Source of the DNA: Escherichia coli
Lineage (GTDB): Bacteria; Pseudomonadota; Gammaproteobacteria; Enterobacterales; Enterobacteriaceae
DNA length: 64,000 nucleotides
NCBI RefSeq assembly: GCF_013122565.1
Contig: NZ_CP053258.1
Direction: 5' to 3' (one strand)
Part shown: positions 331 through 60,030 of the stretch, piece by piece
Numbering within the stretch: position 1 is the first letter of the stretch
How the letters are laid out: every line of letters begins with the position of its first letter
The notes under the pieces: model-generated
What the model saw: the letters and a program-made list of their open reading frames with translations, nothing else
Told to the model about the DNA's origin: nothing
Databases searched by the model: none
Made by a program: the position numbers and the translations under genes

Positions 331-924
331 TCACTCCTTGAGAATAGTTTTTATCGCTTCCCCCGCCAGTGCAGCTGTTGCACAGAGTTGTTCGATGGAG
401 TGCCCCTCCCGTGCCTTCGCAGAAAGCCCTGACATCACGGTACTCATAAAATCAGTCACACATTGTGCGCTTTGTGGATGCCGCCTGGCGATATAGTCAT
501 AAATGGTCGTTTCTGCGGCGTGATAATATTGAAGGGCAATATCACGCGCTTGTGGATCATGACTATGAATACCTTCAAGAACCATACAGCCAGCGCAGCC
601 GCCGTTTTGGCTATATCTGCGCGCCGCTTCTTTTAATACCTCAACCAGGCACTCGCCTACCGGACGATCATCACGAAGAATATCGGCAAGCGGAATAGCT
701 TCCGTACCGACATATTCATTGAGTACACGGCTAAATAACCCAGCCTTACTGCCAAAAGCCGCGTAGAGGCTCGGGGGGTTAATACCAAGATAATCAGTAA
801 CTTCAGCAACACTGACAGCATCGAAACCTTTTTGGTGAAAAAGCACTTTTGCCGCAGAGACTGCCTGCTCAGGAGCGAAACGTCTGGGACGACCTGGAAC
901 GCGAGATTGTTTTTTAGTGACCAT
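331..924 (-). CDS. bdcR: TetR-family transcriptional regulator BdcR
   Basis: 197 aa ORF with N-terminal TetR HTH (GFDAVSVAEVTDYLGINPPSLYAAFGSK); divergent from SDR gene bdcA. Confidence 0.8.
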   Translation of the reverse strand: MVTKKQSRVPGRPRRFAPEQAVSAAKVLFHQKGFDAVSVAEVTDYLGINPPSLYAAFGSKAGLFSRVLNEYVGTEAIPLADILRDDRPVGECLVEVLKEAARRYSQNGGCAGCMVLEGIHSHDPQARDIALQYYHAAETTIYDYIARRHPQSAQCVTDFMSTVMSGLSAKAREGHSIEQLCATAALAGEAIKTILKE

Positions 925-963
925 TACAAAACTTGTTGACAGAAAGTTAAAACAGTTTTGTAA
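924..963. promoter_or_regulatory. Inverted repeat TTACAAAAC...GTTTTGTAA in bdcR/bdcA divergent promoter; candidate TetR-type operator
   Basis: Arms at 924-932 and 955-963 are exact reverse complements, placed between the divergent start codons. Confidence 0.45.
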
Positions 964-994
964 TGCATGTTACATAATAAATCAAGGAGTCCTT

Positions 995-4062: not shown

Positions 4063-4134
4063 TTGCGGTTGGTAATAAAAGTCTGGCTCCCTATAATGAG
4101 CCAGACTTTTTACCGCTGTAATAAAGGAGAAATC

Positions 4135-57749: not shown

Positions 57750-57868
57750 TCTGAGTTTGAAATACGTACCAACGAGTATGCTGGTACGTATTTCTTCGCA
57801 AACGCACTGTTTATGCTCTCTCCCTCATAATGACTGTTTCATCTAACTAATATTTCTAAATAACTGTC

Positions 57869-59681: not shown

Positions 59682-60003
59682 AATATTAGCATTTATTAGA
59701 TTGAACGCACCTGCAAAGCGTTCAGAATTATGGAAGAGATAATATCTTATCTTTTTATATATAAAAACAATAAAATAACAGCACATTAATATATAACTTA
59801 TTGTTTTTATTATCTTACAAGGGAGACACTCGCTGTATTGATGCTTTTGTCGTGTTTTATGTGTAAAAAACATGACACGAACTACCAGCGGCGAGACTGG
59901 GGGCTGGGGGCCTGGTATGGGTACTGCGAACTTTTTATAAAAGGAATAGCAAGAGATTTATGGAGGGAACGTCTATTTCTGCGGTTTTTATCACTTAAAA
60001 GCA

Positions 60004-60030
60004 AAACGCCGACCAATGGTCGGCGTTTTT
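60004..60030 (-). terminator. rplI operon terminator (bidirectional-looking hairpin)
   Basis: AAAACGCCGACC-AAT-GGTCGGCGTTTTT with T/A runs on both sides, just downstream of rplI stop. Confidence 0.7.

Follow-up and report, generated by a model that had tools for sequence, protein, structure and literature searches.

The inverted repeat between bdcR and bdcA of Escherichia coli is probably formed by the inner half-sites of two separate BdcR operators

An inverted repeat between the divergent genes bdcR and bdcA of Escherichia coli raises the question of which DNA sites a repressor recognises in this promoter region, and whether the repeat is one of them. The window, by which we mean the whole stretch of 64,000 nucleotides analysed here (assembly GCF_013122565.1, contig NZ_CP053258.1), opens in the bdcR/bdcA locus. 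The bdcR (yjgJ) gene occupies positions 331–924 on the minus strand and encodes a TetR-family regulator of 197 aa (ORF call, PF00440 and RefSeq annotation), residues 23–66 of which match the TetR_N helix-turn-helix domain PF00440 with E = 2.5e-13. The bdcA (yjgI) gene, at 995–1708 on the plus strand, encodes a short-chain dehydrogenase/reductase of 237 aa (ORF call, domain search and RefSeq annotation), and the intergenic region is 70 bp long. According to Ma et al. 2011, as cited in PMC6598151 and PMC6790063, bdcA is negatively regulated by BdcR. A search of the literature on BdcR, YjgJ and yjgI found no operator, EMSA, footprint or usable ChIP binding data; a published ChIP-seq compendium included yjgJ, the data for which could not be modelled. 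A sequence-only reading of the locus had proposed that two 9-nt arms form a TetR-family autoregulatory operator which overlaps the bdcR start and controls both genes.

The proposed arms, TTACAAAAC at 924–932 and GTTTTGTAA at 955–963 with 22 nt between them, are present when read directly from the window sequence, and the repeat is longer than first reported, with perfect 12-nt arms at 922–933 and 954–965 separated by 20 nt. The left arm, CATTACAAAACT, consists of the bdcR start codon, a 7-nt element that we call half-site B and two flanking nucleotides; it holds the entire start codon (CAT, 922–924). The right arm, AGTTTTGTAATG, is made of two flanking nucleotides, half-site C and 3 nt of the spacer that follows it. 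First-order Markov simulations of perfect inverted repeats with loops of 3–40 nt gave an expectation of 8.3 ± 3.0 repeats of 9 nt and 0.12 ± 0.37 of 12 nt per 64 kb, and the window contains 27 and 5, respectively. A 9-nt repeat is not unusual by chance, and the 12-nt one is unusual. The other perfect 12-nt repeats in the window (loops of 3–26 nt) lie at 4077–4110, 57759–57794, 59761–59810 and 60003–60029; the first is directly past the pyrBI genes, and at least two of the four look terminator-like. The repeat and promoter region is carried by 4770 of 5426 complete E. coli genomes, at 99% identity or more in 4394 of them, and the sole change found within the species is T/C at position 933. K-12 MG1655 has C there, and its repeat is therefore only 11 nt long. 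Intraspecific variation was considered as a test and set aside, the genomes differing too little to be informative. The small symmetries AAAACAGTTTT (949–959) and AACTTgtTGACAgaAAGTT (930–948) were likewise rejected: they are not kept in orthologues and lie where the alignment carries about zero information. A 13-nt direct repeat of 85% identity, AGTTAAAACAGTT in the promoter spacer (945–957) and AGGTAAGACAGTT in early bdcA codons (1009–1021), is probably due to chance.

The placement of the arms within the divergent promoter is borne out by the gene positions and by published promoter elements. Warman et al. 2026 (PMC12825309) described bdcA/bdcR as a bidirectional promoter on the basis of cappable-seq start sites and in vitro transcription, and Shimada et al. 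2014 (PMC3946193) is a further source for its −35 and −10 elements. On the plus strand, bdcA has the −35 element TTGACA at 936–941 (CTTGAC in orthologues) and the −10 element TGTAAT at 959–964, with its start site at A972; on the minus strand, the −10 element of bdcR, TACAAA at 957–962, overlaps that of bdcA, its −35 element, TTGATT at 980–985, overlaps the bdcA Shine-Dalgarno sequence AAGGAG (984–989), and its start site is at about 948 (PMC12825309, with the bdcA elements in Table S2; PMC3946193). Both start sites were taken from formatting marks in the published text. We used this mapping because TGTAAT and TACAAA either fail the rule of our sigma-70 scan, which demands A at −10 position 2, or score too low, and the scan found no promoter in 800–1100. 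In these coordinates, the left arm spans −50 to −39 of the bdcA promoter and +16 to +27 of the bdcR promoter, and the right arm overlaps the shared −10 core. The two studies dealt with the same DNA as ours from the side of RNA polymerase alone, and a regulator site for the pair is not described in them. The block CTCAAGGAG / CTCCTTGAG (980–989), where the bdcA Shine-Dalgarno sequence and the bdcR −35 element overlap, is conserved family-wide, which indicates that one sequence serves both genes. A recognisable Shine-Dalgarno sequence is absent from the bdcR 5′ leader (925–947, minus strand); the position just upstream of the ATG is occupied by half-site B, in E. coli and orthologues alike.

The anatomy of the region and its conservation were observed directly by comparison across species. 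A scan of one genome per species yielded 80 loci encoding a BdcR relative, in alpha-, beta- and gammaproteobacteria. A BdcA orthologue is encoded divergently in every one of them (80/80), across an intergenic region of 68–75 bp in 78 loci and of 79 and 84 bp in the other two. Outside Escherichia, the BdcR relatives are 54–64% identical to E. coli BdcR, their N-terminal DNA-binding region being nearly invariant, and the BdcA partners of the same loci are 72–85% identical to E. coli BdcA; BdcR has diverged much faster than BdcA, or the pair has an unusual history. Two side observations concern the sample. The locus L001 (SFGN01000138.1), labelled ‘MAG: Lachnospiraceae bacterium’, encodes BdcR and BdcA with 98% protein identity to E. 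coli and probably represents an E. coli contig present through misbinning or contamination. Raoultella terrigena NBRC 14941 has two bdcR loci in one genome, L005 and L014; the divergent bdcA of L005 matches residues 1–74 only and may be truncated or a pseudogene, and both operators described below are retained there.

We compared 78 non-identical bdcR–bdcA loci, 76 of which were aligned. Besides the bdcA −35 element and the Shine-Dalgarno sequence, the conserved blocks comprise four half-sites of the form TACAWAA; information in the 17-bp promoter spacer is about zero, from which it follows that substitutions there are saturated. The four half-sites, which lie in bdcR codons 2–4 (A), at the bdcR start codon (B), at the shared −10 (C) and at the bdcA start site (D), make up two palindromes TTWTGTA-N8-TACAWAA, A+B and C+D, and both are present in essentially all 78 loci. 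In an unbiased scan of these loci allowing at most one mismatch per half-site, the gap from TTWTGTA to TACAWAA was exactly 8 in 125 pairs, whereas the gap from B to C, that is, the pairing proposed by the sequence-only reading, spread over 24–28 bp in orthologues. A TyrR box was also considered at this locus. Such a box reads TGTAAA-N6-TTTACA, that is, TGTA-N10-TACA, and it was rejected on the N8 spacing found here.

In the E. coli window, the left predicted operator, O_L, is at 910–931 (TTTTTTA-GTGACCAT-TACAAAA; half-sites A 910–916 and B 925–931), corresponding to −62 to −41 of the bdcA promoter and +18 to +39 of the bdcR promoter. Its half-site A is one base off the family consensus, with TTTTTTA for TTTTGTA (TAAAAAA for TACAAAA). 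The right one, O_R, is at 956–977 (TTTTGTA-ATGCATGT-TACATAA; half-sites C 956–962 and D 971–977), at −16 to +6 of the bdcA promoter and −8 to −29 of the bdcR promoter, and covers both −10 hexamers together with the bdcA start. A 22-column operator matrix trained without any E. coli sequence ranked 910–931 first (27.3 bits) and 956–977 second (25.1) among 63,979 window positions, the next one scoring 8.2. Conservation of half-site C is confounded with promoter function, as it coincides with the shared −10 elements. Half-site A, being coding, provides an independent test: 69 of 70 loci use ACA for its Thr codon (background 7.4%) and 46 of 46 use AAA for its Lys codon (background 37%), the G+C content of the genes being 55–72%, although translation also favours A-rich early codons and could inflate this result, and the binomial P values overstate independence because the sequences are phylogenetically related.

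We therefore consider it probable that the bdcR–bdcA region contains two separate 22-bp TTWTGTA-N8-TACAWAA operators, each bound by one BdcR dimer, and the repressor bound at both is most likely BdcR itself. The conspicuous repeat would then be a by-product, its left arm containing the inner half-site of O_L and its right arm that of O_R; the two inner half-sites face each other, and their match over 11–12 nt in E. coli would be happenstance.

A repressor footprint on O_R was directly observed by Reg-Seq (Ireland et al. 2020, PMC7567609), which reported one repressor site on the bdcR promoter, at −27 to −4, labelled NsrR and said to repress both bdcR and bdcA. Converted from MG1655 coordinates by w = 951 − p, this site falls at window positions 955–978, that is, on O_R ± 1 bp; no other register reconciles the wild-type sequence with the four strongly constrained matrix positions, which settles a mapping uncertainty of 1 bp, and the placement of the −35 TTGA and −10 TACA agrees with this conversion. 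The site is thus the same DNA as O_R, and O_L was not called as a site there. In the arabinose condition, expression was raised by mutations at 971–976 (half-site D) and at 956–958 (the outer T tract of C), and a weak repressor-like signal was found at 927, 929 and 930, in half-site B of O_L, with the reservation that promoter-spacer effects could contribute to these arabinose signals. Mutations at 959–962 (the bdcR −10 TACA) and 982–985 (the −35 TTGA) lowered expression.

The best surviving alternative takes this label at face value: the right arm would be a site for the nitric-oxide sensor NsrR, which rather than BdcR would repress both promoters, and the left arm would be incidental. An NsrR-like half-site, AACATGCATTA, is indeed found inside the O_R spacer (961–971, minus strand, read from 971 to 961), one mismatch from the 11-bp consensus AANATGCATTT, and NsrR was reported at this promoter in vivo by the ChIP-chip study of Partridge 2009, as cited in PMC7567609. 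The Reg-Seq label itself rests on a ‘known binding location’, with neither knockout nor mass spectrometry behind it (PMC7567609). In the per-base data for arabinose, expression does not rise when the ATGCAT core of this element (963–968) is mutated. The matrix is most constrained at the four positions of TGTA (974–971), three of which lie beyond any 23-bp NsrR site (949–971); of the six positions that it shares with the NsrR-like half-site, five give the NsrR consensus base a probability of 0.001–0.08. The best string of the Reg-Seq matrix, ..TCTGTAGCGCT, has as its last 9 positions the orthologue consensus TTATGTAGCGcT, which comprises half-site C and the flank on its inner side, even though wild-type E. 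coli reads TGTAACATG at this stretch and so differs from the best string. The limits of the site and its matrix fit a half-site of the BdcR family better than the NsrR assignment. Finally, no NsrR-like half-site with fewer than two mismatches was found in the other loci of the 78-locus set, whereas O_R is universal in it. NsrR cannot explain the conserved operator architecture, and we regard its being the repressor in place of BdcR as unlikely; it may be a lineage-specific overlay at O_R. Apart from E. coli, the only locus with ATGCAT in its O_R spacer is that of Pantoea dispersa DSM 30073 (L077; TTTTGTAATGCATAC), whose BdcR is the closest relative outside Escherichia, at 64%. The NsrR-like element may have originated in the lineage that this locus represents.

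The proposal of the sequence-only reading, in which arms of 9–12 nt set 20–22 bp apart form one operator for a single BdcR dimer or tetramer, draws on a perfect 12-nt complementarity that is rare by chance and on its location in the divergent promoter. The pairing, nevertheless, is wrong: 925–931 pairs with 910–916 and 956–962 with 971–977, each across a fixed 8-bp gap, against the variable arm spacing of the orthologues. Long complementarity is confined to E. coli, the longest perfect inverted repeat between the operators being 3–8 nt in other loci. The repressor-like Reg-Seq positions 971–976 lie beyond both arms, and the distance of 32 bp between the arm centres is too long for a single TetR dimer to bridge, given that the dimer of the related regulator CifR covers 23–26 bp. 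We conclude that the repeat is very probably not itself one operator, and the single-operator model in its original form has little chance of being correct. What stands from it is that a TetR-family repressor very probably makes contact with each of the two arms, which are not each other's partners. The expected control of both genes likewise holds for the right arm, where binding should affect bdcA and bdcR because the arm covers the two overlapping −10 elements, and does not hold for the repeat as a unit.

It might also be argued that no regulator is involved and that the repeat arises incidentally from the pseudo-symmetry of a bidirectional promoter, whose documented overlapping −10 elements do lie inside the right arm. 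The axis of the promoter, midway between the −35 elements, is at about 960.5, however, and that of the repeat at 943.5; the left arm corresponds to no promoter element, and conservation extends to half-sites A, B and D, none of which has a role in the promoter. This explanation is highly improbable. An RNA hairpin or DNA cruciform acting as an attenuator or terminator can be practically dismissed in spite of a single-stranded DNA fold of −10.5 kcal/mol (z = −3.8), as the starts at 948 (minus) and 972 (plus) leave one arm or none in each transcript, which excludes the RNA hairpin since neither transcript contains both arms, while no terminator-like site was found at the repeat and the stem is not conserved in orthologues.

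Under the two-operator model, RNA polymerase would find both −10 elements blocked once a BdcR dimer occupies O_R, and since occupancy of O_R covers the two hexamers and the bdcA start, bdcA and bdcR would be switched off together, the latter by autoregulation. Repression of bdcA through O_R would be consistent with the reported negative regulation by BdcR. A second dimer on O_L is predicted to abut the bdcA −35 element, to span the bdcR start codon and to add to repression; this contribution is the least certain step because half-site A is off consensus and the Reg-Seq signal is weak. We infer BdcR as the protein, one dimer per site and the role of O_L. A requirement for DNA looping between O_L and O_R was considered and rejected, their centres being 46–50 bp apart (4.4–4.8 helical turns), out of phase and variable.

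These results provide a concrete operator model for BdcR, a regulator for which the literature search found no published binding site, and illustrate how two neighbouring palindromic operators can give rise to a conspicuous long-range inverted repeat. They also suggest re-examination of one Reg-Seq site that was given to NsrR by database location, and this database-derived assignment of O_R probably needs correction. A broader interpretation, which we put forward tentatively as possible rather than probable, is that the published ‘NsrR’ footprint is that of BdcR, that BdcR–BdcA is a widespread proteobacterial module for sensing electrophiles or epoxides in the manner of CifR, and that the operator spacer of E. 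coli has acquired an NsrR half-site. If true, two stress sensors would share one 22-bp site, owing to the NsrR half-site in the 8-bp spacer of O_R, and bdcA, named for biofilm dispersal, would be recast as a detoxification gene; the gene regulated by BdcR encodes a highly conserved NADPH-type short-chain dehydrogenase.

The closest relative of BdcR whose structure was solved with DNA is CifR of Pseudomonas aeruginosa. The best solved-structure matches of BdcR are 2I10, an uncharacterised putative TetR regulator (E = 8e-19), and CifR 6NSN (E = 1.4e-18). One CifR dimer binds per 26-bp duplex or operator, with a minimum footprint of 23 bp and the DNA-reading helices of the dimer 37.9 Å apart, and CifR has two operators in the divergent cifR–morB intergenic region (PMC10827105). 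In the P. aeruginosa locus, the cifR-proximal site reads ATTTATA-GTGATCGA-TACAAAT, and the reverse complement of its 26-mer, TTATTTGTATCGATCACTATAAATTT, reproduces 12 of 12 base identities quoted in PMC10827105; we place the second site, ATCTGTA-TCGGTCGC-TAAATAA, 50 bp away. The two top positions of the BdcR-family matrix in the cifR locus are these two sites, at 21.3 and 16.5 bits, followed by −7.9, and the higher-scoring one is that with the tenfold higher affinity according to PMC10827105.

CifR places Pro44 and Pro45 in the major groove at C15–T18 and Arg6 in the narrow minor groove of the outer A/T tract, at T4–T6 (PMC10827105). CifR Arg6, Pro44, Pro45, Tyr48 and Lys54 align with BdcR R12 (in G-R-P), P50, P51, Y54 and K60, and all five BdcR residues are invariant in the family alignment. 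By homology, P50, P51, Y54 and K60 of the BdcR helix-turn-helix would lie in the major groove over the inner part of the half-site, CAY-TACA, and the arginine R12 of the N-terminal G-R-P would reach into the minor groove where it is narrow, along the outer A/T tract. The contact residues and the operator layout common to the two proteins argue that the BdcR sites are the same kind of operator as the solved one. Cysteine C113 of BdcR (586–588, minus strand) is family-invariant and aligns with CifR Cys107, a residue implicated in the epoxide response (PMC10827105). The link to CifR, through the contact residues, the operator layout and the sensing cysteine, is a lead to the inducer of bdcA.

Operators of both kinds share a T-rich tract with GTA or ATA, a spacer of 8 bp, and TAYA followed by an A-rich tract, and in both cases two of them occupy a divergent promoter, 50 bp apart for CifR and 46–50 bp apart in the BdcR family. 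The CifR half-sites are weaker repeats than those of the BdcR family and both lie within a 125-bp intergenic region, whereas that of the BdcR family has only about 70 bp, for which reason O_L extends into the coding part of bdcR. The CifR target is an epoxide hydrolase operon and that of BdcR a short-chain dehydrogenase; CifR binding was solved with DNA, and the BdcR sites are predicted from sequence. Apart from the operator model, the locus has a conventional TetR-type divergent-promoter arrangement. In the tetR–tetA region of Tn10, two palindromic operators in a divergent promoter repress the regulator and its target gene together. The tetO half-sites are contiguous, in a palindrome of 15–19 bp, whereas the BdcR-type half-sites are 8 bp apart and are predicted to be contacted in addition through the minor groove of their A/T tracts.
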